Position numbers and translations under genes: made by a program. The notes below the pieces were generated by a model. The model saw only the letters and a program-made list of their open reading frames with translations. It ran no database searches and had not been told where the DNA came from. Below are positions 1,595-10,783 of a stretch of 32,000 bases of DNA, one piece after another; positions within the stretch are counted from its first letter, which is position 1, and each line of letters begins with the position of its first letter. Origin of the DNA: Xanthomonas campestris pv. campestris str. ATCC 33913 (GTDB lineage: Bacteria; Pseudomonadota; Gammaproteobacteria; Xanthomonadales; Xanthomonadaceae); contig NC_003902.1 in the NCBI RefSeq assembly GCF_000007145.1, forward strand, positions 4,166,497 through 4,198,496, read 5' to 3'.

Positions 1595-3709
1595 CTATTT
1601 GACGCCCAGCTGGTCCAGCACGAAGGCATACGATTCGGCCAGTTCGCGGTAGCGGCGGAAGCGGCCGGATTTGCCGCCGTGGCCGGCTTCCATGTTGGTG
1701 CGGAAGACGATCGGGTAGGTGCCGGTGTTGTCGTCGCGGAGCTTGGCGACCCACTTGGCCGGTTCCCAGTACTGCACCTGCGAATCCCACAGGCCGGTTC
1801 CGACGAACATCGCCGGGTAGGCCTGCTTGCGCACGTTGTCGTACGGGGAATACGACAGCATGTAGTCGTAGTAATCCTTGGTTTCCGGGTTGCCCCATTC
1901 ATCGTATTCGTTGGTGGTCAGCGGGATGCTGGCATCGAGCATGGTGGTGACCACGTCCACGAACGGCACCTGCGCCACCATCACCCGGTAGTCCTGCGGG
2001 GCCATGTTGGCCACCGCGCCCATCAGCAAGCCGCCGGCGCTGCCGCCGGAAGCCGCAACGCGGTCCTTGGCAGCGTAGCCCTGTGCCACCAGGCCGCGGG
2101 TGATATCGACAAAGTCGTTGAAGGTGTTCTGCTTGTGCAGCAGCTTGCCGTCGTCATACCACTGCCGGCCCATTTCCTGGCCGCCACGGATGTGCGCGAT
2201 GGCGTACACCACGCCGCGATCCAGCAGGCTCACCGCCGGCAGGTTGAACGCCGGGTCCATCGACATGCCGTAGCTGCCGTACGCGTACTGGAACAACGCG
2301 GCAGTGCCGTCTTTCTTGAAGCCTTTCTTGTAGACCAGCGACACCGGCAGCTTGACGCCGTCGCGCGCGGTCACCCAGACGCGTTCGGTCACGTAGTTGC
2401 CGGCGTCGTAACCGATCACCGGCTGCTGCATGAGCAGCTTGCGCTCGCCGGTCTGGGTATTGAGTTCGTAGGTGGTGGCCGGTGTGGTCAGCGAGGTGTA
2501 GGTGTAGCGCAACCACGCGGTGTCCGGCTCGGAGTTGACCGACAACCCCATCGAATACGCCGACTCGTCGGTCTTGACGTACTCGTGGCTGCCATCGCGC
2601 TTGAGCAGGCGGACGCGCTCCAGGCCACCGGACCGTTCTTCGATGGCGGTGAAGCCATCGAACAGTGCGTAGCTTTCGATATACACGTTCGGGTCGTGCG
2701 CCACCCAGTCGGTCCACTGCTTGCGCGTGGTCGCATTGGTGGGCGCGGTGACCAGCTTGAAGTTCTTGGCGCCATCGGCATTGGTGCGGATCACCCAGCG
2801 GCCACCGAAATGCTCCGGGTGGTATTCGACGTCGCGCTCGCGCTTGGCCAGCACGGTGAAGGTCTCGGGTTTGTCGGCCGGCGCGTAGCGGGTTTCCGAG
2901 GACACCGTGCTCTCCACGCCGATGACGATGTACTTGTCGTCGCGGGTGCGGGAGATGCCCATGTAGAAGCTGTCGTCCTTTTCCTCGTAGACCAGCACGT
3001 CGTCCTTGGCCGGCGTGCCGAGCACGTGCTTCTTGACGCGCACGGTCAGCAGCGTTTCCGGGTCGTTTTCCACATAGAACAAGGTCTTGTTGTCGTCGGC
3101 CCACACCACGTTGGCGGAGACGCCTTCCACGGTGTCCGGATAGACCTCGCCGGTCTCCAGGTTCTTGAAACGGATGGTGTACTGCTGGCGGCCCACTGCA
3201 TCGTCGGCCCAGGCCAGGATGCGGTTGTCCTGGCTGACTTCGGCATCGCCAACACTGAAGTAGCCCTTGCCCTCGGCCAGGGTGTTGACGTTGAGCAGGA
3301 TCTCTTCCGGTGCGTCCATGCTGCCCTTGCGGCGCGCCTGGATCGGGTAGTCCTTGCCGGCCTCGTAGCGCGTGTAATACCAGTAGCCACGCTCGCGGTA
3401 CGGCACGCTGGCATCGTCCTGCTTGATGCGCCCGACGATCTCGGTATACAGCGTGTCTTCCAGCGGCTTCAGCGGCGCCATCAAGGCGTCGGCGTAGGTG
3501 TTTTCGGCGTTGAGATACGCCAGCATGGCCTTGTTCTCACGCTTGTCGTCGCGCAGCCAGTAGTAGTCATCGTTACGGGTGGCACCGAACGGGGCCTTGA
3601 CCACGTGCGGATGCTTGGCCACGTCCGGCGGCGTCGGGAGGGCGGCAAGTGCGGAAGGAACAGAGCTGGTCATCAGGCTGGCGATCAACAAGGTCAGGAC
3701 AGGTTTCAT
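1595..3709 (-). CDS. ptrB: S9A serine peptidase, oligopeptidase B (protease II)-like, with signal peptide
   Basis: The 738-aa ORF is trimmed to the Met at 3709 (MKPVLTLLIASLMTSSVPSALAALP, a signal peptide). It carries DDYYWLRDD near the N-terminus, the nucleophile block GGSAGGLLMG, and GHGG near the C-terminus. Confidence 0.85.
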   Translation of the reverse strand: MKPVLTLLIASLMTSSVPSALAALPTPPDVAKHPHVVKAPFGATRNDDYYWLRDDKRENKAMLAYLNAENTYADALMAPLKPLEDTLYTEIVGRIKQDDASVPYRERGYWYYTRYEAGKDYPIQARRKGSMDAPEEILLNVNTLAEGKGYFSVGDAEVSQDNRILAWADDAVGRQQYTIRFKNLETGEVYPDTVEGVSANVVWADDNKTLFYVENDPETLLTVRVKKHVLGTPAKDDVLVYEEKDDSFYMGISRTRDDKYIVIGVESTVSSETRYAPADKPETFTVLAKRERDVEYHPEHFGGRWVIRTNADGAKNFKLVTAPTNATTRKQWTDWVAHDPNVYIESYALFDGFTAIEERSGGLERVRLLKRDGSHEYVKTDESAYSMGLSVNSEPDTAWLRYTYTSLTTPATTYELNTQTGERKLLMQQPVIGYDAGNYVTERVWVTARDGVKLPVSLVYKKGFKKDGTAALFQYAYGSYGMSMDPAFNLPAVSLLDRGVVYAIAHIRGGQEMGRQWYDDGKLLHKQNTFNDFVDITRGLVAQGYAAKDRVAASGGSAGGLLMGAVANMAPQDYRVMVAQVPFVDVVTTMLDASIPLTTNEYDEWGNPETKDYYDYMLSYSPYDNVRKQAYPAMFVGTGLWDSQVQYWEPAKWVAKLRDDNTGTYPIVFRTNMEAGHGGKSGRFRRYRELAESYAFVLDQLGVK

Positions 3710-3818
3710 CAGATTGGGGTCCGTTGGATGAACGCAATGCCATCCCAGCGCGCGAGTGTGGAAGAGGCCGCCGGGGAGCGTCATGTGTCCGAGGTCATGC
3801 TGGTCTATCATCTTCGCA

Positions 3819-5003
3819 ATGGACTCACTGCTTTCGCCCGTGTCCGGCTATAGCCGCCGCAGCCAGGACATCGCGCCCTTCCATGTGATGGCCCTGCTGG
3901 CCCGCGCCAACGCACTGGAACAGGCCGGCCACGATGTCATCCACCTGGAAATCGGCGAGCCGGACTTCACCACCGCTGCGCCCGTGGTGGCCGCCGGCCA
4001 GGCTGCATTGGCCGCAGGCCACACCCGTTACACCGCCGCCCGCGGGCTGCCCGCGTTGCGCGAGGCAATTGCCGGGTTTTACGCGCAGCGTTACGGCTGC
4101 CACATCGATCCCGAGCGCGTGCTGGTCACCCCGGGAGGCTCCGGCGCTTTGCTGCTGGCCAGCAGCCTGTTGGTCGACCCGAGCAAGCATTGGTTGCTCG
4201 CCGACCCGGGGTATCCGTGCAACCGTCACTTCCTGCGCCTGGTCGAAGCTGGCGCGCAGCTGGTACCGGTGGGCCCGGACAGCGACTACCAACTGACCCC
4301 GGCGCTGGTGGATGCCTGCTGGACGGCCGACAGCGTTGGCGCGTTGGTGGCCTCACCGGCCAACCCCACCGGCAGCGTGCTCTCGCGTGCGCAGTTGGCC
4401 GCCTTGTCGCAGGCCTTGCAGGCGCGTGGTGGCCACCTGGTGGTGGATGAGATCTACCACGGCCTGACCTACGGCCTGGACGCGCACAGCGTGCTGGAAG
4501 TGGACGACAGCGCGTTCGTGCTGAACAGTTTTTCCAAATACTTCGGCATGACCGGCTGGCGCCTGGGCTGGCTGATCGCCCCACCCTCTGCGGTGCCCGA
4601 GTTGGAAAAACTCGCGCAGAACCTCTACATCAGCGCCTCGTCCATCGCCCAGCATGCGGCCCTGGCCTGCTTCACGCCCGAGAGCATCGCCATCTTCGAA
4701 GCGCGCCGCGCCGAGTTCCAGCAACGCCGCGATTACCTGTTGCCTGCACTGCGCGCACTGGGCTTCGACATCGCCGTCGAGCCACAAGGCGCGTTCTATC
4801 TGTATGCCGACATCAGCGCATTCTCCAAGGACGCGCAGGCCTTCTGTACGCACTTCCTGGAAACCGAGCATGTTGCCTTCACTCCCGGCATCGACTTCGG
4901 CTTCCACCGCGCCAACCAGCACGTCCGCATCGCCTATACGCAGAGCCTGCCGCGCCTTGAGCAGGCGGTGGAGCGCATTGCGCGTGGGTTACGGCACATC
5001 TGA
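3819..5003 (+). CDS. PLP-dependent class I/II aminotransferase (aspartate/aromatic-like)
   Basis: Starts at the ATG at 3819 (MDSLLSPVSGYSRRSQDI). It carries the GEPDF motif and the PLP-lysine block SFSKYFGMTGWRLGW. The N-terminal register matches AspC-like enzymes. No Shine-Dalgarno sequence is visible. Confidence 0.85.
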   Translation: MDSLLSPVSGYSRRSQDIAPFHVMALLARANALEQAGHDVIHLEIGEPDFTTAAPVVAAGQAALAAGHTRYTAARGLPALREAIAGFYAQRYGCHIDPERVLVTPGGSGALLLASSLLVDPSKHWLLADPGYPCNRHFLRLVEAGAQLVPVGPDSDYQLTPALVDACWTADSVGALVASPANPTGSVLSRAQLAALSQALQARGGHLVVDEIYHGLTYGLDAHSVLEVDDSAFVLNSFSKYFGMTGWRLGWLIAPPSAVPELEKLAQNLYISASSIAQHAALACFTPESIAIFEARRAEFQQRRDYLLPALRALGFDIAVEPQGAFYLYADISAFSKDAQAFCTHFLETEHVAFTPGIDFGFHRANQHVRIAYTQSLPRLEQAVERIARGLRHI

Positions 5004-5056
5004 ACGGAGATACGAGACGGGCTAACGCCACCCCGCTGACAGTGCAGTCTGCGTGC

Positions 5057-6013
5057 CTACTTGACTGGCCTACTCTGGCCCGCGTCATTGTGTGCCGTAG
5101 CCGCCAACTCGATGCGCCCGTCGGACCGTTTGCCGAGCAGCGCCCGCAACTCCAGCCAATTTCCCTCGTGCGGCCAGCCGGAAAAATTGGCAACCATCTT
5201 TCCGTCGTGCATCAGATAGAAGGTCGGTGTACCCCAACTGTTGATCATTGACCAATCCGCCGTGTGGCGTGCCAGTACGATGGATTGATCCGTATGCGTC
5301 TTATTCCAAGCTTCAAGTACCTCATAATCAAGACGCAGCCCAACAGGCGCAAGCCATACAAGGTGGACCCCTTGCAAGAGCGGATGATGCCTCAGATCGT
5401 CCATGGCTCTCACTGAAAATCTGCAATGCGGATGGACGACCACGACCAGTATGTCTCCGCGCAACGGAATCTGGATTTCGCGCAGCCGCCTCTTGCCTTG
5501 ATCAATGGCATAGGCATTGGGCCTAACCGTAGGCCCCGCCCTGACCACATCGGGTACCGGTTCAAATTCAATGCCGGGATGGGCACCTGCCAGTTGGTCT
5601 GCGTCCGCAAAGCGACGAAACTGGACAAGCGTCTGATGATAGCGCTTCAGCACATCAGGCCCGGCAGTGTCGCCAAATGCTTCCATGACTTCGATCATTT
5701 GCTGCAAATAGCGCTCGTCGTCAGTGTAATAGGCAAGGCGCTGGCTTGCCCGCGACAATGTTTCCAAGCCCGCCCTGGGGACGTCGGCAAGGCGTGGAGA
5801 GTCGAGTACCGGCGCAAACGCTGCGTTATAGGCGTCCGCCAAGCGTTGCAGGCGATCCTTGCGTGGCAGGCTCAGGGTCGCCTCGTCCAGCGCCACCAGG
5901 CGATCGTAAGCGTCATTCAACACGTCAACCGAGGGTTGCGCCCACGCCACAGAGCTAATGAGCAGTACTGTCGAGATAAAAAACCAGCGGAACCGACAAT
6001 GGCCAATCGACAT
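5057..6013 (-). CDS. exported hypothetical protein: helical N-domain plus C-terminal thioredoxin fold with a monothiol HCRFS motif
   Basis: The ORF is trimmed to the ATG at 6013, with GGAGAG 8 nt upstream. The signal peptide is MSIGHCRFRWFFISTVLLISSVAWA|QPS. The C-terminal region reads ILVVVVHPHCRFS...WGTPTFYLMHDGKMV, a TlpA/ResA-like strand-motif-helix plus cis-Pro block. GC is only about 45-57%. Confidence 0.7.
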   Translation of the reverse strand: MSIGHCRFRWFFISTVLLISSVAWAQPSVDVLNDAYDRLVALDEATLSLPRKDRLQRLADAYNAAFAPVLDSPRLADVPRAGLETLSRASQRLAYYTDDERYLQQMIEVMEAFGDTAGPDVLKRYHQTLVQFRRFADADQLAGAHPGIEFEPVPDVVRAGPTVRPNAYAIDQGKRRLREIQIPLRGDILVVVVHPHCRFSVRAMDDLRHHPLLQGVHLVWLAPVGLRLDYEVLEAWNKTHTDQSIVLARHTADWSMINSWGTPTFYLMHDGKMVANFSGWPHEGNWLELRALLGKRSDGRIELAATAHNDAGQSRPVK

Positions 6014-6098
6014 GGCACTGCTCTCCAGTGTGTTGGGAATTCGCGAAGCGCCAGACCCCAATTCGATGGGATCTGGCGGAAGCCGGCCTTGGAATTGA

Positions 6099-6626
6099 CT
6101 AGCAATTGGCACCGATGCAAATCTTTCCCATTGACTGACCGCAGGTAGCCTTAGCTACGCATGCATAATCAGGATAATCTGGATCTTTGCTGGCATCCGG
6201 CCTGTATTCACCACTGATTGCATTTACGGGCTCCCGAGAATCGACGGACGACATGATCGCCTTGCTAAACCCATCTGACTGCCTCAACCCGGGAATAAGC
6301 GCGACTGTTGCCTGCTGGCCGAACAGCGATAGAACCTTATATGCCTCAAGCGCATTCAGTTCCATTTCCAAATCTTGATAGGAATAACTTGCCAAGCCGC
6401 TCTCTGAAAAAACAAGACTATTCAGAAATCGCTCTCTATTTGAAGGAGATAAATACTTCAGGGGCGATTGAGCCGGCATAAATTTTAGATATTCCTGCAG
6501 TTCCGCTCGAGAGCGTATTGGAGCGACTTCCTGTTCCAATAGCCTCCGATCCATGGATGTACCTAAAGCGTTGTTAGACAAACTTACATTTTGAGCAATG
6601 ACACCTGAAGCGATGAAAAAAAGCAT
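6099..6626 (-). CDS. hypothetical exported protein with a C-terminal 4-Cys tail (start codon problematic)
   Basis: 175-aa ORF in roughly 38-45% GC DNA. All four Cys fall in the last 20 residues (CVAKATCGQSMGKICIGANC, then stop). The ATG at 6626 has no usable SD spacing and yields a headless signal peptide (MLFFIASGVIAQN). A better start at 6655 is out of frame. Confidence 0.6.
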   Translation of the reverse strand: MLFFIASGVIAQNVSLSNNALGTSMDRRLLEQEVAPIRSRAELQEYLKFMPAQSPLKYLSPSNRERFLNSLVFSESGLASYSYQDLEMELNALEAYKVLSLFGQQATVALIPGLRQSDGFSKAIMSSVDSREPVNAISGEYRPDASKDPDYPDYACVAKATCGQSMGKICIGANC

Positions 6627-6655
6627 GCTCCCACTGCGATATTCAGGATTTTCAT
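6584..6655 (-). other. 23-codon upstream frame carrying the SD and the signal-peptide n-region, offset by -1 from the 175-aa ORF
   Basis: AGGAG, then 5 nt, then the ATG at 6655. It reads MKILNIAVGACFFSSLQVSLLKM followed by a stop. One extra T in the T7 run (A7 on the + strand, 6616-6622) gives MKILNIAVGACFFFIASGVIAQNVS, in frame with the 175-aa ORF. Confidence 0.5.
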
Positions 6656-6666
6656 AATAGCTCCTA

Positions 6667-6885
6667 TCAAGGGATTTTTATTTTGCAGCATTCTCCTCTG
6701 GAGATAGAGGGGAGGTGGACTCGGGACGCCTCACAGCGACGCGCCCCATTATTTTTTACACCCGATGCACAAAGGACGCAATCACCATTGAGTTCGCATA
6801 TTTTTGAATATTTCGATAGTGGTGGAAAGCTAGCCTTATCCCCGCATGGTGGGCATGGACGCCTCAATCCGCTAAACGCTCCCAC
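6667..6885 (-). CDS. doubtful Cys-rich mini-ORF (72 codons, GTG start inside the peptidase 3' end)
   Basis: 8 Cys in 72 residues, including the CPPCG and CVLC knuckles 20 residues apart. There is no SD. The start overlaps the last 22 nt of the upstream gene. Confidence 0.2.
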   Translation of the reverse strand: MGAFSGLRRPCPPCGDKASFPPLSKYSKICELNGDCVLCASGVKNNGARRCEASRVHLPSISRGECCKIKIP

Positions 6886-8957
6886 AGGAAGCTGTAGGCC
6901 AGCGCCGACATATGCGCCGCCTGCGCATTGTTGGCTGCGCCGCCATGGCCGCCTTCGATGTTCTCGTAGTAGGTCACGTCCTTGCCAGCCTCGATCATCT
7001 TGGCGGCCATCTTGCGCGCGTGGCCAGGATGCACGCGGTCATCGCGCGTGGAGGTCAGGAAGATCACCGGCGGGTAGGTCTTCTTCGGATCGAACAGGTG
7101 ATACGGCGAGAAGGTCTGGATGAATTTCCAGTCGTCGGTGTCAGGATTGCCGTACTCAGCCATCCACGAGGCGCCCGCCAACAGATGGCTGTAGCGCTTC
7201 ATGTCCAGCAGCGGGACTTGCACCACCACCGCGCCGAACAGCTCCGGATACTGGGTCAGCATGTTGCCGGTCATCAGGCCGCCGTTGCTGCCGCCCTGCA
7301 CGCCCAGGTGCTTGGTCGAGGTGATCTTGCGCGCGACCAGATCCTTGGCGACCGCGGCCATGTCTTCATAGGCCTTGTGGCGGTTCTGCTTGAGCGCGGC
7401 CTGGTGCCAGCGTGGGCCATATTCGCCACCGCCGCGAATGTTGGCCACCACGTAAACGCCACCCTTCTCCAGCCAGGCACGGCCCAGGGCGCCGGAATAA
7501 TTCGGCGTCATCGAGATCTCGAAACCGCCATAGCCATACAGCAGGGTCGGCGCGCTGCCATCGAGCTTGAGATCCTTTGGCCGCACCAGGAAGTACGGCA
7601 CGCGGGTGCCATCCTTGCTGGTGGCAAAGTGCTGCTCGATGCTGTCCTCGCCGGCATCGAAGAACGCCGGCATGGTCTTCAGCGGTTGCGGCGCAGTGCC
7701 CACGTCCACCCACGACAAGGTGGTGGGCGTGAGGTAGTCGGTGACGGTCAGCCACAACGCATCGCTGTCATCGCTGTCCACGGCGCCGACATCCACGGTA
7801 CCAAAGGCTGGTGCACCGACAAAGGCGCTTTTCTTCCAGCCATCCTGCGAGGGCGTGATCACGCTCAGGCGGTTCTTGACGTCTTCCAGCACGTTCAACA
7901 CCAGGTGCGAGCGCGTCCAGGTCATGCCGGCCAGCGAGGTGGTGTCGGTGGGCTCGAACAGCACATCGAAGTCGCGCTTGCCCTGCATGAAGGCATCAAA
8001 GCGCGTGACCAGCAGCGAGCCGGCCTTGTAGGTCTTGCCGCCCACCGTCCACGGCTCGCGCAGCTCCAGGGTGAGCCACTCGCGCTTGACGCTCTTGTTG
8101 GCGGAGTTCGGCGCATCCACCTTTACCAGCGCGCCATCGGCCTTCTTGAAATACAGCTCGTCGTTGTAGAAGGCCAGCGTGCGGCTGACGAAATCACGCT
8201 CGAATCCAGGCGTGTCGTCATGCATCGCCATGATGTACATGTCGGTGGGCTTGCCCTCGTACACCACCTTGGCCGTGCTCAGCGGCGTGCCGCGCTTCCA
8301 CTGCTTGGCAATGCGCGGGTAGCCGGAGCTGGTCATCGCGCCGGGGCCGAAATCGGTATAGACGTAGACGGTGTCCTGATCGATCCAGCCCAGCCCGCCC
8401 TTGGCTTCGGGGCGGAAGAACCCGTCCTTGACCCACTGCTTGGTGGACAGGTCAAACTCACGCGTCACGTCCGCGTCGGCACCGCCGCGCGACAGCGCGA
8501 TCAGGCAGCGCTGGTAGCCCGGGCGCAGGCAATCGGCGCCGTGCCAGACCCAGTTCTCTTTCTCGGCCTTGTTGAGCGCATCCAGGTCCAGCACGGTTTC
8601 CCACTTGGGCGCCGCCTTGCGGTATTCGTCCAGCGTGGTGCGCCGCCACAGGCCGCGCTCGTGCTGCTTGTCCTTCCAGAAGTTGTAGTAGTACGGGCCG
8701 ATCTTCTGCACGGTGGGAATCTTGGCATCCGAGTCGAGCACCTCGCGGATACTCGATTCCATCTGCTTGAAGGCCGGGGTCACCGCCAGCCGCGCCTCGG
8801 TCTTGGCGTTCTGCGCCTTGACCCAGTCCAGCGGCTTGGCGCCGGTGACATCTTCCAGCCAGGCATACGGATCATTGGACACGGCGGTTTCCTTTGCAGA
8901 GACGGCGCCAGCAGTGATCAGGCCGGCAACCAGGCAGATCGAGGCGAATTTGGACAT
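6864..8957 (-). CDS. S9A prolyl oligopeptidase-family serine peptidase with signal peptide
   Basis: 697-aa ORF. The signal peptide is MSKFASICLVAGLITAGAVSA|KE, followed by DPYAWLED. The nucleophile block is GVQGGSNGGLMTG, with GGHGG near the C-terminus. Confidence 0.85.
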   Translation of the reverse strand: MSKFASICLVAGLITAGAVSAKETAVSNDPYAWLEDVTGAKPLDWVKAQNAKTEARLAVTPAFKQMESSIREVLDSDAKIPTVQKIGPYYYNFWKDKQHERGLWRRTTLDEYRKAAPKWETVLDLDALNKAEKENWVWHGADCLRPGYQRCLIALSRGGADADVTREFDLSTKQWVKDGFFRPEAKGGLGWIDQDTVYVYTDFGPGAMTSSGYPRIAKQWKRGTPLSTAKVVYEGKPTDMYIMAMHDDTPGFERDFVSRTLAFYNDELYFKKADGALVKVDAPNSANKSVKREWLTLELREPWTVGGKTYKAGSLLVTRFDAFMQGKRDFDVLFEPTDTTSLAGMTWTRSHLVLNVLEDVKNRLSVITPSQDGWKKSAFVGAPAFGTVDVGAVDSDDSDALWLTVTDYLTPTTLSWVDVGTAPQPLKTMPAFFDAGEDSIEQHFATSKDGTRVPYFLVRPKDLKLDGSAPTLLYGYGGFEISMTPNYSGALGRAWLEKGGVYVVANIRGGGEYGPRWHQAALKQNRHKAYEDMAAVAKDLVARKITSTKHLGVQGGSNGGLMTGNMLTQYPELFGAVVVQVPLLDMKRYSHLLAGASWMAEYGNPDTDDWKFIQTFSPYHLFDPKKTYPPVIFLTSTRDDRVHPGHARKMAAKMIEAGKDVTYYENIEGGHGGAANNAQAAHMSALAYSFLWERLAD

Positions 8958-9025: not shown

Positions 9026-9337
9026 TCAGGCCGCGCGCACCTGCGTCGCCGTGCGCGAACCCACGCGACGGCGCTGCGCCTGCGGCCCCCGCCGCCGCGT
9101 CCTTGCTGGCCGCTCGCCCCGGCGCGGCAATGCCGGCACGGCGAACCGGTACAGGCTCCACCACGCCAGCATCGGCATGCCGACCAGCCACAGCGGCAAC
9201 CAGCCGATCCACTCGCTATGGCCGCGCGCCGCCGGCCACACCAATACCAGGGCCAGCCCGGCCAGGGCGACCTGGCGCACCGGACGCAGCACGCGTGGGT
9301 CGGGAGTTTCGGAACGACGGGAAAGGCGATGCGACAT
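9026..9337 (-). CDS. small hypothetical membrane protein (two predicted TM helices, Arg-rich tail)
   Basis: Internal ATG at 9337 with GGAG 8 nt upstream. The 103-aa product contains VALAGLALVLVWPAA and WIGWLPLWLVGMPMLAWW hydrophobic segments. Third codon positions are GC-rich. Confidence 0.45.
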   Translation of the reverse strand: MSHRLSRRSETPDPRVLRPVRQVALAGLALVLVWPAARGHSEWIGWLPLWLVGMPMLAWWSLYRFAVPALPRRGERPARTRRRGPQAQRRRVGSRTATQVRAA

Positions 9338-10014
9338 GGCGGCACTCCGTGGCGGGATGGATGAGGACAGGCCGGCAGAATTGCCTGCGGCCATCTCACC
9401 GGCTGCGACCTGTGCGACACCGGTGACAGCGCTGCCGTTTCGCGCGTGTGGCTGGTTGGCGGCGGCGCTGCGCGCTGCTCGCTCGCGGCTGGGGCCCGCG
9501 GTGTTCCCGCCGCCGCTGCGACACTGATGGACTTCCGCCGTGCGTAGGCCGCGCAACGCTGAGCAAGCCTGGCTGGACCAGCACTCGCGCGGTTTCCGGT
9601 TCCGGCACCAACCGCACACCACGGCCGTTACCCACGCGTCGCCAGTAGCGCAGTTCTACCTAAGTGCCGCAATGCGCAGGGCCATCCAAGACAGGCGGCG
9701 GCTGGCCCCAGCACTGGCGCTGTCCCACTGCATGCATCAACCGCCCCCAGCCCTCCCCAACGCGTCGCCGTCACGCGGGCTGATCAGCCAGATCAAGCTG
9801 ATGCGGCATGCGCAGCTGCATCCACCGGCCCGCGGTCAGCGATCAGCGCCGCCACTGTCGCGGCTCCGTCATCTGGCTGCCGTCCACTAGCGCGGCTGGC
9901 ACGCGCGCCCGGCCGGTCCAGCGGCGTTTGTCGACGCCAGGCGCAACCGTTGACGCGAACTTGCCCCCTGCATGCGGTAGTGTGCTGACCCAACTGACCC
10001 TCTGTGACTTTGCG

Positions 10015-10640: not shown

Positions 10641-10783
10641 CTTGGAGCCGCGATCAAAACGACTGCGCAGCCGCCAGGGCGCGCGCCCGGTGCTCGAAAC
10701 CGGCATGTATCCACGTACGGTCCGGTTCTTCCGCGCCGCCCGCACCCACCTGACAACTGCCCGCTACGTACCGTTAGCCGCGC

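Follow-up and report, generated by a model that had tools for sequence, protein, structure and literature searches.

Why does a stretch of low-GC DNA with two genes of no recognized family lie between two core genes of Xanthomonas campestris pv. campestris ATCC 33913, and what might those genes do? The islet (5004..6863) is part of a 32,000-nt stretch of contig NC_003902.1 that we analyzed as a whole (positions 4,166,497 to 4,198,496 of the forward strand); we call this stretch the window and use its coordinates throughout. On its minus strand, the islet carries gene A, which encodes an exported protein with a cysteine-rich tail, followed by gene B, which encodes an exported monothiol thioredoxin-fold protein. 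Judging from the comparison of related loci, this islet is one instance of a two-gene module that is conserved and stands alone. Our first choice for its function, in which our confidence is somewhat less than even, is that B serves as a private disulfide-shuffling or holding partner for the cysteine knot of A. We rank a toxin with its immunity protein second, and we consider a metal or redox relay, or decay of the locus, less likely.

A conserved two-gene module

An earlier note on this DNA, written from the sequence alone, had described a first gene with a leader, a Cys-free body, and a C-x5-C-x7-C-x4-C tail; a second gene, starting 85 nt downstream on the same strand, with a helical N-domain and a TlpA/ResA-like thioredoxin fold; and a self-contained unit made up of these two genes, neither of them assignable to a family. 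Except for the leader of the first gene (see below), this description holds. The body and tail of A are as described, B does begin 85 nt downstream (ATG at 6013), AlphaFold2 and Foldseek agree on the monothiol TlpA/ResA-like fold, and no match to either protein was found in Pfam, NCBIfam, or PADLOC. In all related loci with enough sequence, A is directly followed by B on one strand, with no third conserved gene. The note had offered two roles, a maturation pair or a toxin/bacteriocin with its immunity protein, and both are candidates in what follows. The pair is co-conserved in Xanthomonas, Stenotrophomonas, Lysobacter, Tahibacter, and 23 metagenome contigs, and the islet is not a core segment of native composition.

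The conservation of the pair was seen most directly in a metagenome scan, for which the query was a 26-sequence subset of the 122-member alignment of A. The scan found 26 loci. In 21 of these, the hidden Markov model (HMM) of the B family matched the open reading frame (ORF) directly after A on the same strand; two further loci have a partial B ORF (23/26), and the last three contigs end no more than 216 nt past A. The A-then-B order also occurs in X. arboricola, X. melonis, X. populi, Tahibacter soli and its relatives, Stenotrophomonas, and Lysobacter, and every related locus with enough sequence has the same order and strand. In 17 related loci, only a short spacer separates A from B. When we compared all ORFs against each other across 30 loci, only A and B were common to them.

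Adjacency, order, and strand are kept down to 21–40% sequence identity and in at least five flanking contexts. In Xanthomonas, the pair lies between aminotransferase and S9 peptidase genes; in Stenotrophomonas, at a TonB-dependent receptor/PAP2 junction; in Lysobacter, behind two alpha-lytic protease genes; in Tahibacter, next to genes for cyclopropane-fatty-acid synthase; and in a metagenome locus from a genome with about 50% GC (L102), at ubiE-ubiJ-ubiB/rep. The genera with the pair are Xanthomonas, Stenotrophomonas, Lysobacter, Luteimonas, Thermomonas, and Tahibacter. All members with an organism name belong to the Xanthomonadales, except for one on a 3.4-kb contig of a metagenome-assembled genome labeled Achromobacter. 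The family extends beyond the named hosts, as two long metagenome contigs with GC contents of 39% and 50% carry it.

The pair is also AT-rich wherever this could be assessed: both genes are AT-richer than the host in all 13 metagenome loci with enough flanking sequence (mean difference of −9.2 GC points for A and −7.2 for B). Locus L102 repeats the picture of the window in a lower-GC genome. There, the pair (6965–8550) forms an AT-rich two-gene islet with a GC content at third codon positions (GC3) of 0.27–0.28, and the neighboring genes (ubiE-ubiJ-ubiB and a rep/uvrD helicase) have GC3 of 0.48–0.67.

We considered two other kinds of genes as functional partners of the pair. A LysR regulator is found near the pair in some loci, but effectively in three lineages only. 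A functional link to the S9 peptidases was rejected because these are core genes with or without the islet and are absent from the other contexts of the pair. Separately, a few loci have neighbors that are reminiscent of conflict systems. In three Tahibacter-like loci (L003 5551–7099, L001 430–1680, and L004 5664–6914), the gene directly upstream of the pair encodes a protein of 416–417 amino acids (aa) with no Pfam family and a weak match to Imm1 (E 0.013), and L003 also encodes a 95-aa protein of the Imm35 immunity family (E 2.7e-13). In Lysobacter CP091194 (L127; 2489–5612 and 9334–11874), the pair follows tandem alpha-lytic proteases, and some 2 kb away is a Zeta_toxin/XVIPCD protein of the same type as the antibacterial effectors of the Xanthomonadales type IV secretion system (T4SS), known as X-Tfe.

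Gene A encodes an exported protein with a four-cysteine tail

As read in the window, A is a 175-aa ORF (6099..6626, minus strand) for a Cys-tailed exported protein whose N-terminus has been shortened by a frameshift. It is 98% identical to a 188-aa protein, P0010, from other X. campestris genomes. A profile search with A returned 979 cluster representatives at E ≤ 0.001, 733 of them below 1e-10; most of the representatives are 165–200 aa long and are matched from the core through the last Cys. (Word-indexed searches had given just 5 relatives of A and 9, then 12, relatives of B, and we dropped the idea of a rare family.) The feature counts that follow rest on 122 of the 979 representatives.

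Members of the family open with a signal peptide and close with a C-terminal motif of some 26 residues that contains four cysteines; between these lies a conserved core (about 85 residues) with a variable linker on each side. The core (6282..6530, minus strand; residues ~33–115 as numbered in the window) is helical and includes the motifs APIRS, LSP..R.RF..SL.F, and LSLFG.Q.T. Its mean column entropy in the family alignment is 1.9 bits, versus 3.2 bits for the linkers, and AlphaFold2 gives block means of 72–90 for the predicted local distance difference test (pLDDT) over residues 41–120 of P0010, which cover the core. The linker before the tail contains a PDY-PDY tandem encoded by two 9-nt copies (6165..6182, minus strand); other X. 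campestris genomes have three copies, which appears as a 9-base indel.

The tail, or Cys knot (6102..6179, minus strand), reads D-Y-P-D-Y-A-C-x5-C-x7-C-x4-C and runs to the end of the protein; in the window, the cysteine part is C-VAKAT-C-GQSMGKI-C-IGAN-C, preceded by DYPDYA. The consensus of the family is D-[YH]-x-x-Y-x-C-x-x-[RP]-[AG]-T-C-x6-I-C-x2/3-N-C. The spacing is C-x5-C-x7-C-x3-C in 91 members and C-x5-C-x7-C-x4-C, as in the window, in another 27 (together, 118/122). The last Cys is the end of the chain in 112/122, and the number of cysteines after the leader is even in 118/122 (four in 82 members and six in 35). Six positions, from the second Cys to the Ile before the third, are hypervariable (3.0–3.7 bits) in an otherwise conserved tail. 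The tail hardly differs between X. campestris, X. melonis, and strain NCPPB 1067.

Besides the searches with A itself, we compared the 122 members to Pfam and NCBIfam with hmmscan and again found no family. Sequence and profile searches against the PDB, and Foldseek, found no relative of A with a known fold, and hhalign found no similarity between A and B. Two variants of the family stand apart: a 265-aa protein (P0024) has two A-type core domains and no Cys tail, and one metagenome locus (L090 2–948) has two A genes in tandem.

Gene B encodes an exported monothiol thioredoxin-fold protein

B (5057..6013, minus strand) encodes 318 aa, with its start chosen from the ORF list and the alignment of homologs. 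In the 85-nt spacer between A and B (6014..6098, minus strand), GGAG lies 9 nt before the start of B, and a terminator scan found no terminator-like site. The signal peptide, as read from the sequence (5939..6013, minus strand; MSIGHCRFRWFFISTVLLISSVAWA, with cleavage before QPS), has a basic n-region, a hydrophobic core, and an A-x-A site. It is followed by an N-terminal helical domain (residues 29–144; 5582..5929, minus strand), which AlphaFold2 models as seven helices with pLDDT above 90 and which is conserved in the family, and by the thioredoxin-fold domain (residues 155–294; 5132..5551, minus strand), which was identified from the AlphaFold2 model and by Foldseek against the PDB. The model as a whole has a pLDDT of 85.2 and a predicted template modeling score (pTM) of 0.78.

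Foldseek matched the thioredoxin-fold domain with probability 1.0 to FetE (8t4c), 2l5o, TlpA (4txo and 1jfu), ResA (1st9), and CcmG (1kng); the target-normalized template modeling (TM) scores of its matches are 0.45–0.64. The matches include the mixed-disulfide complexes of TlpA with ScoI and CoxB (4txo and 4txv). The top matches (above E 0.004) are bacterial proteins of the TlpA, ResA, and CcmG types, deiodinase, and peroxiredoxins, with plain thioredoxins lower, and there is no protein from the family of protein disulfide isomerases (PDI) among the 50 matches listed.

The active site is P-H-C-R-F-S (5414..5431, minus strand), with Cys197 as the nucleophile and Ser200 where the resolving Cys would be. 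P195, C197, and S200 are invariant in one alignment of B homologs. The site is C-x-x-S/T/A in 29 of the 30 members and CHFC in the remaining one, and two further members have CGFT. Because one member has CHFC, the Ser of the other members can be placed by alignment at the resolving position, which confirms at the sequence level that these sites are homologous with CxxC sites. (The CHFC member is L114 2107–3129, and its A partner has an ordinary four-Cys tail.) In 23/30 members, the active-site Cys is the only Cys of mature B. The cis-proline loop (Thr262-Pro263; 5225..5230, minus strand) is nearly invariant as T-P, with S-P in one clade; it was assigned from its sequence. No other part of B is similar by sequence to solved thioredoxins (E ~0.05 for the loop).

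B matched no family in Pfam (E ≤ 0.1) or PADLOC and had no meaningful match in NCBIfam at E ≤ 1; the best family match of any B homolog was to Thioredoxin_2, with E 0.22. We rejected two more specific identities. B is not a CGFS monothiol glutaredoxin because the motif is generally C-x-x-S/T/A and the nearest folds are of the TlpA type, and it is not a peroxiredoxin because there is no Thr or Ser three residues before the Cys.

In the paired loci compared, tails with four residues between the last two cysteines (IC-IG-x-NC) pair with the B sites CGFS or CRFS in 8/8 cases, and tails with three residues pair with CHFS, CNPS, CGYT, and so on in 15/16 cases, with one locus (L002, CGFS) as the exception. 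This pairing could reflect shared ancestry rather than co-adaptation.

A frameshift in the signal peptide of A

In the window strain, the leader of A that the earlier note had described is cut short by a frameshift. The original start (6584..6655, minus strand) is an ATG at 6655–6653 behind AGGAG at 6665–6661, and it now reads MKILNIAVGACFFSSLQVSLLKM and then a stop. P0010, in contrast, opens with MKILNIAVGACFFFIASGVIAQ... in one frame and has a normal signal peptide. The difference is a homopolymer in the part of A that encodes the signal peptide, which is T7 in the window (6616..6622, minus strand) and T8 in the in-frame allele, and which shows up as a one-base gap in an alignment of the islets of nine X. 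campestris genomes. With seven Ts instead of eight, the good ribosome-binding site (RBS) and ATG are out of frame with the 175-aa ORF.

The frameshift is not a sequencing error: 286 blocks of the collection, many of them complete genomes, contain precisely this 175-aa product. The 188-aa form is on record in 91 blocks. Among the nine aligned islets, two (from genomes L122 and L123) have T8. The T8 genomes also have the third copy of the 9-nt PDY repeat, and they are found on both of the single-nucleotide polymorphism (SNP) backgrounds of the B region. An internal ATG at 6626 has GGGAG just one base upstream. Since the frameshift separates the body of A from the start codon and the charged N-terminal part of the signal peptide, A is probably silent in the window strain or made weakly, by initiation at the internal ATG or by slippage. 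Gene B is intact here.

A similar situation exists in two X. populi genomes (L087 and L088, ~5308–5400), which have a run of Gs between the signal-peptide part of A and its body. The run is 8 long in one genome and 6 in the other, and 7 would be in frame. B is intact next to the frameshifted A in X. populi as well, and we saw no B gene without an A gene in the loci examined. (The S9 peptidase gene upstream of the islet was not called in L087 or L088.) Also, in one metagenome locus (L099 7001–7530), A is split by a frameshift, and the B of this locus does not have its active-site part.

A proposed role for B in the folding of A

How might a protein with a single active-site thiol act on a protein with a four-Cys tail? 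A site with the nucleophilic Cys alone cannot carry a disulfide and so cannot oxidize or reduce by itself. Yeast Eug1p, which has natural CxxS sites, cannot oxidize and was described as "suited for shuffling reactions" (PMC2195995), and the CRFS site of TMX5 naturally traps clients in mixed disulfides (PMC11443168). The even number and fixed spacing of the cysteines in A point to an end state in which all of the disulfides are within A, so any bond between A and B would be transient.

By inference, then, B may be a private disulfide-shuffling or holding partner for A. After export, the general oxidase DsbA would introduce disulfides into the tail of A. B would dock on A, probably on the conserved core and by way of the helical domain of B, and its single thiolate would attack mispaired disulfides of A. 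The resulting mixed disulfide would be short-lived and would be resolved by A's own thiols. In this way, B could act as a shuffling isomerase and holding chaperone without a supply of reductant. Finished A would be a knot of two disulfides (or three, in about 30% of members) that displays one hypervariable loop, and such a product would be suited to binding something outside the cell or in the periplasm, as in antagonism or signaling.

Several points weigh against this proposal. First, AlphaFold2 gives the tail of A low confidence, and the contact between A and B is something that we infer from their sequences. Second, B is intact while A is frameshifted, both here and in the two X. populi genomes, which suggests that B may be useful without A and would fit a role in immunity or as a holdase at least as well. 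Third, xanthomonads have general machinery of the DsbA/DsbC type, and the need for a private isomerase is an assumption. Fourth, a natural CRFS site can be a trap rather than an isomerase, as in TMX5 (PMC11443168). Finally, no processing protease or outer-membrane exporter travels with the pair in the 30 loci compared, so the release of a small peptide is unsupported.

A broader form of the proposal, which is tentative and on balance doubtful, is that the A–B pairs make up an undescribed class of secreted disulfide-knot products. Each A would be a Sec-exported pre-pro-protein that yields a two-disulfide knot with one hypervariable loop and with a free C-terminal Cys at its end, and a monothiol thioredoxin of its own would fold or hold it, without recycling of the DsbD type. 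The pair would be a minimal cassette that spreads within the Xanthomonadales and other Gammaproteobacteria without mobility genes, and the homopolymer runs (T8/T7 in X. campestris; G6 and G8 around the in-frame G7 in X. populi) would be on/off switches.

Alternative explanations

The alternative that survives best is that the pair is a toxin or bacteriocin with its immunity protein, which we consider somewhat improbable. A, or a knot released from it, would harm competitors or the cell's own envelope, and B would protect by forming a mixed disulfide or by non-covalent capture in the periplasm. A patchy, AT-rich, stand-alone module of two genes on the same strand would suit such a system, although no lysis gene, double-glycine leader, or dedicated exporter accompanies it (only A and B are conserved across the 30 loci, and the leaders are Sec-like) and PADLOC has no match. 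A hypervariable loop upon a conserved scaffold would also suit a toxin, but the near-identity of the tail in X. campestris, X. melonis, and NCPPB 1067 shows that it is not diversifying quickly at short range. An orphan immunity gene would be expected to look like B in the window and in X. populi, intact beside a frameshifted A. A site of the CRFS type can trap clients naturally (PMC11443168), but the even Cys count of A argues against a lasting covalent adduct with B. Finally, one locus has two tandem A genes, and there are conflict-system neighbors in Tahibacter (Imm35 and a weak Imm1) and in Lysobacter (the alpha-lytic proteases and the X-Tfe T4SS effector), but in just these two genera.

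A second possibility is that the locus is a decaying relic in the window strain, with A a pseudogene and the low GC content due to relaxed selection. The T7 run does separate the body of A from its RBS, start codon, and the front of the signal peptide; the out-of-frame G8 and G6 runs of the two X. populi genomes and the frameshifted A of one metagenome locus are similar, and the junction is empty in several relatives. However, this seems unlikely because, downstream of the run, hundreds of X. campestris assemblies have one identical, intact frame of A (286 blocks, and just 9 SNP columns across nine genomes and 1.9 kb) and because B is intact everywhere. Also, T8, the in-frame allele, is in circulation as well (91 blocks) and occurs with either SNP background of the B region, and low GC is a property of the whole family, intact pairs included (13/13 loci).

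Third, the pair could be involved in redox or metal handling in the envelope. The four-Cys tail of A would bind a metal (copper or zinc) or carry redox equivalents, and B would keep the tail reduced or repair it, as TlpA does for ScoI and CoxB. Four cysteines within a short stretch could chelate a metal, and the structural matches of B include both the mixed disulfides of TlpA with ScoI and CoxB (4txo and 4txv) and FetE of iron uptake (8t4c). Nevertheless, we think that this is quite unlikely. A monothiol site cannot complete a reduction cycle alone (PMC2195995), Thr before the cis-Pro is reported to be absent in reductases (PMC2665069), and no partner of the DsbD/CcdA type, metal transporter, or regulator is conserved nearby (30 loci). 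Also, the hypervariable loop between the second and third cysteines is unlike a conserved metal site, and a patchy AT-rich accessory distribution would be unusual for housekeeping redox functions.

Last, it is very improbable that A and B are two unrelated hypothetical genes that are neighbors by chance in a horizontally acquired fragment, as this is contradicted by the adjacency, order, and strand that are kept at 21–40% identity and in at least five contexts.

Comparison to known systems

B shares its fold, extracytoplasmic location, cis-Pro loop, and a nucleophilic Cys at the start of helix 1 with the oxidoreductases of the TlpA/ResA/CcmG type. It differs from these in having CxxS/T/A instead of CxxC, with no match to Redoxin, AhpC-TSA, or Thioredoxin_x of Pfam or to any NCBIfam family, and in its additional N-terminal helical domain of about 115 residues. 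TlpA and ResA are membrane or lipid anchored, whereas the signal peptide of B is read as cleavable, with no membrane or lipid anchor. Also, B is paired with one gene for a Cys-tailed protein and not with genes for the assembly of cytochromes or copper centers.

The natural monothiol members of the PDI family, such as Eug1p (CLHS/CIHS) and TMX5 (CRFS), likewise have thioredoxin-fold sites without a resolving Cys, and the site of TMX5 is the same as that of B in the window. ERp44 is another PDI-family protein with a monothiol CRFS site. The likeness lies in the working mode and not in descent, as B is nearest to bacterial TlpA-type proteins and not to PDI a-domains. Furthermore, CRFS is found in only some of the Xanthomonas B proteins, and B is bacterial and periplasmic and is encoded beside a single presumed client.

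DsbC and DsbG are CxxC proteins with a beta-rich dimerization domain; they depend on DsbD for their reduction, act on many substrates, and are encoded by core genes. Like them, B is a periplasmic protein with a thioredoxin fold after an extra N-terminal domain and with Thr before the cis-Pro (for DsbC and DsbG, PMC2665069). B differs in being monothiol, in having a helical N-domain, and in being an accessory gene tied to A.

The genetic logic of a Cys-rich exported product that is encoded with its own oxidoreductase would, by analogy, not be new. Dedicated thiol-disulfide oxidoreductases are known for pediocin (PedC) and methylamine dehydrogenase (MauD). The sublancin operon of prophage SPbeta, which includes sunA and bdbA/bdbB, has the same logic, with a disulfide-dependent secreted product (for sublancin and BdbB, PMC6391423 and PMC4336743). 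The helpers in these systems are CxxC oxidases or membrane proteins similar to DsbB, whereas B is monothiol, and there is no sequence relationship. Those operons are also larger, with a transporter, a modification enzyme, and an immunity gene, versus two genes here.

The heat-stable enterotoxins STa and STb of E. coli are pre-pro-peptides with a Cys-rich mature part at the C-terminus. Cone-snail toxin precursors are folded by PDI (PMC6275033). A has a similar layout: a signal peptide, a conserved "pro"-like region, and a short disulfide-rich C-terminus with a hypervariable loop on a fixed Cys frame. A shares no sequence similarity with these precursors, and its core is larger (about 85 residues) and as conserved as the tail, so that it could be a functional domain rather than a propeptide. 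The layout of A would also be compatible with the precursor of a ribosomally synthesized and post-translationally modified peptide (RiPP), with a leader and a C-terminal core, although the signal peptide implies that a partner would act after export. We found no class of RiPP tailoring enzyme or recognition element beside A: B has no Pfam or NCBIfam match, and no other gene is conserved.

We found no description of the A–B pair in the literature. As far as our literature searches reach, there is no earlier account of the monothiol helper with its helical domain, of the minimal cassette of two genes, or of the A family. Two sizeable families with no Pfam or NCBIfam model and no literature that we could locate form an obligate gene pair with a clear thiol-disulfide logic, and with about 1000 clusters for A, they are not a local oddity. 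If the proposed role of B is correct, then the bacterial envelope gains a self-sufficient, client-specific monothiol isomerase or holdase, and A represents a new family of exported Cys-knot products with a variable loop. The hosts are Xanthomonadales of soil and the rhizosphere and plant pathogens, and the products could act in competition or signaling. The X. campestris strains with T8 versus T7 and the X. arboricola strains with occupied versus empty junctions provide a natural experiment. The pair is also an evolutionary puzzle, as it has no mobility genes and has been kept at one junction across Xanthomonas species, yet it is AT-rich in every host examined.

Composition and history of the islet

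The islet has 53.5% GC (5004–6863), versus 64.6% upstream and 66.8% downstream, and it is the only region of the window with less than 55% GC: all of the 500-nt windows below this value begin within 5181–6631. GC3 is 0.46 for A, 0.64 for B, and 0.84–0.86 for the flanking genes. The low-GC islet of the earlier note is therefore real, and its five hand counts of GC were exact on recount (38.3, 45.0, 45.0, 56.7, and 70.0%). The islet also fills exactly one intergenic slot, as had been claimed. The aminotransferase stops at 5003 (plus strand), the S9 peptidase stops at 6864 (minus strand), and alignments to genomes with an empty junction break off at ~4996 and at 6860–6864.

Both flanks are core genes. 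The class I/II aminotransferase (3843..5003, plus strand; Pfam Aminotran_1_2, E 1.8e-56; NCBIfam PRK08960) is convergent with B, and the S9 peptidase of the prolyl-oligopeptidase family (6864..8957, minus strand; Pfam Peptidase_S9 and Peptidase_S9_N) is upstream of A on the same strand. This peptidase is 80–94% identical among Xanthomonas and Stenotrophomonas, whether or not the islet is present. The order oligopeptidase B, aminotransferase, S9 peptidase is conserved in both genera, but not in the one Pseudomonas locus that we checked. (Two S9-family peptidases thus bracket the aminotransferase: an oligopeptidase-B-like one at 1595–3811 and the prolyl-oligopeptidase-like one at 6864–8957.)

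We assessed the occupancy of the junction by a genome scan with the aminotransferase, which gave informative loci from four Xanthomonas and eleven Stenotrophomonas, of which 13 were analyzed. A–B occupies the junction in X. campestris, X. melonis, X. populi, and X. arboricola CP011256. The earlier note had raised the possibility that other genomes lack the islet, and indeed X. arboricola NL_P126, X. chitinilytica, and most Stenotrophomonas have an empty junction (gaps of ~40–360 bp, as estimated from the ends of alignments). The junction is polymorphic within X. arboricola, and in Stenotrophomonas it is empty with the pair located elsewhere. In two genomes, the junction holds about 610 bp of unrelated sequence, and in X. 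floridensis (L007 8150–9675), it holds about 1.5 kb of unrelated DNA with 66% GC. The ORFs of the X. floridensis DNA include one with a lipoprotein-like leader (9068–9652, minus strand) and two that resemble a split P-loop kinase-like gene (8262–8794, minus strand).

The flanking proteins of X. campestris and X. arboricola share 93% identity, versus 46% for A and 51% for B, and the islets of X. melonis and X. populi have 72–75% DNA identity, versus 89–91% for the flanks. Across nine X. campestris genomes, the islet of ~1.9 kb has 9 SNP columns and 3 indels. By these comparisons, the islet has a long history in Xanthomonas, has changed faster than its flanks, and is present in some genomes but not in others. 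It is not a recent arrival, as it occupies the same junction in at least four Xanthomonas species and has few variants within X. campestris.

The islet has two of the usual marks of a mobile island, namely a composition unlike that of the host and patchy presence at a conserved junction, but not an integrase or transposase, a tRNA target, or flanking direct repeats. The ORF list and the repeat scans bear out the earlier observation that mobility genes, tRNAs, and direct repeats are absent from its edges. Direct and inverted repeats there do not exceed chance; the 10-nt exact repeat at 6724 and 6857 is what we estimate would be expected by chance in 2.3 kb. Comparisons to plasmids and phages at the DNA and protein levels found no match to the islet.

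The AT-rich spacer between the stop of the peptidase and the start of A (6656..6863, minus strand) has 48% GC and presumably holds the promoter of A, although a scan for the sigma-70 consensus found no match in it. Beyond 6667, the spacer has no counterpart in the islets of X. melonis, X. populi, or X. arboricola. A 72-aa ORF with 8 cysteines (6667–6885, minus strand) begins inside the 3′ end of the peptidase gene and spans the spacer. It is probably non-coding because this region has no counterpart in the other Xanthomonas islets and because two X. campestris genomes have a 1-nt indel (at 6805) that would disrupt it. The upper coordinate of this ORF, 6885, coincides with the end coordinate that the earlier note gave for the islet. 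Finally, the sole Rfam match in the window, at 10705–10779 (plus strand), is to the Xanthomonas small RNA sX9 (RF02228, 67.9 bits, E 2.8e-10).

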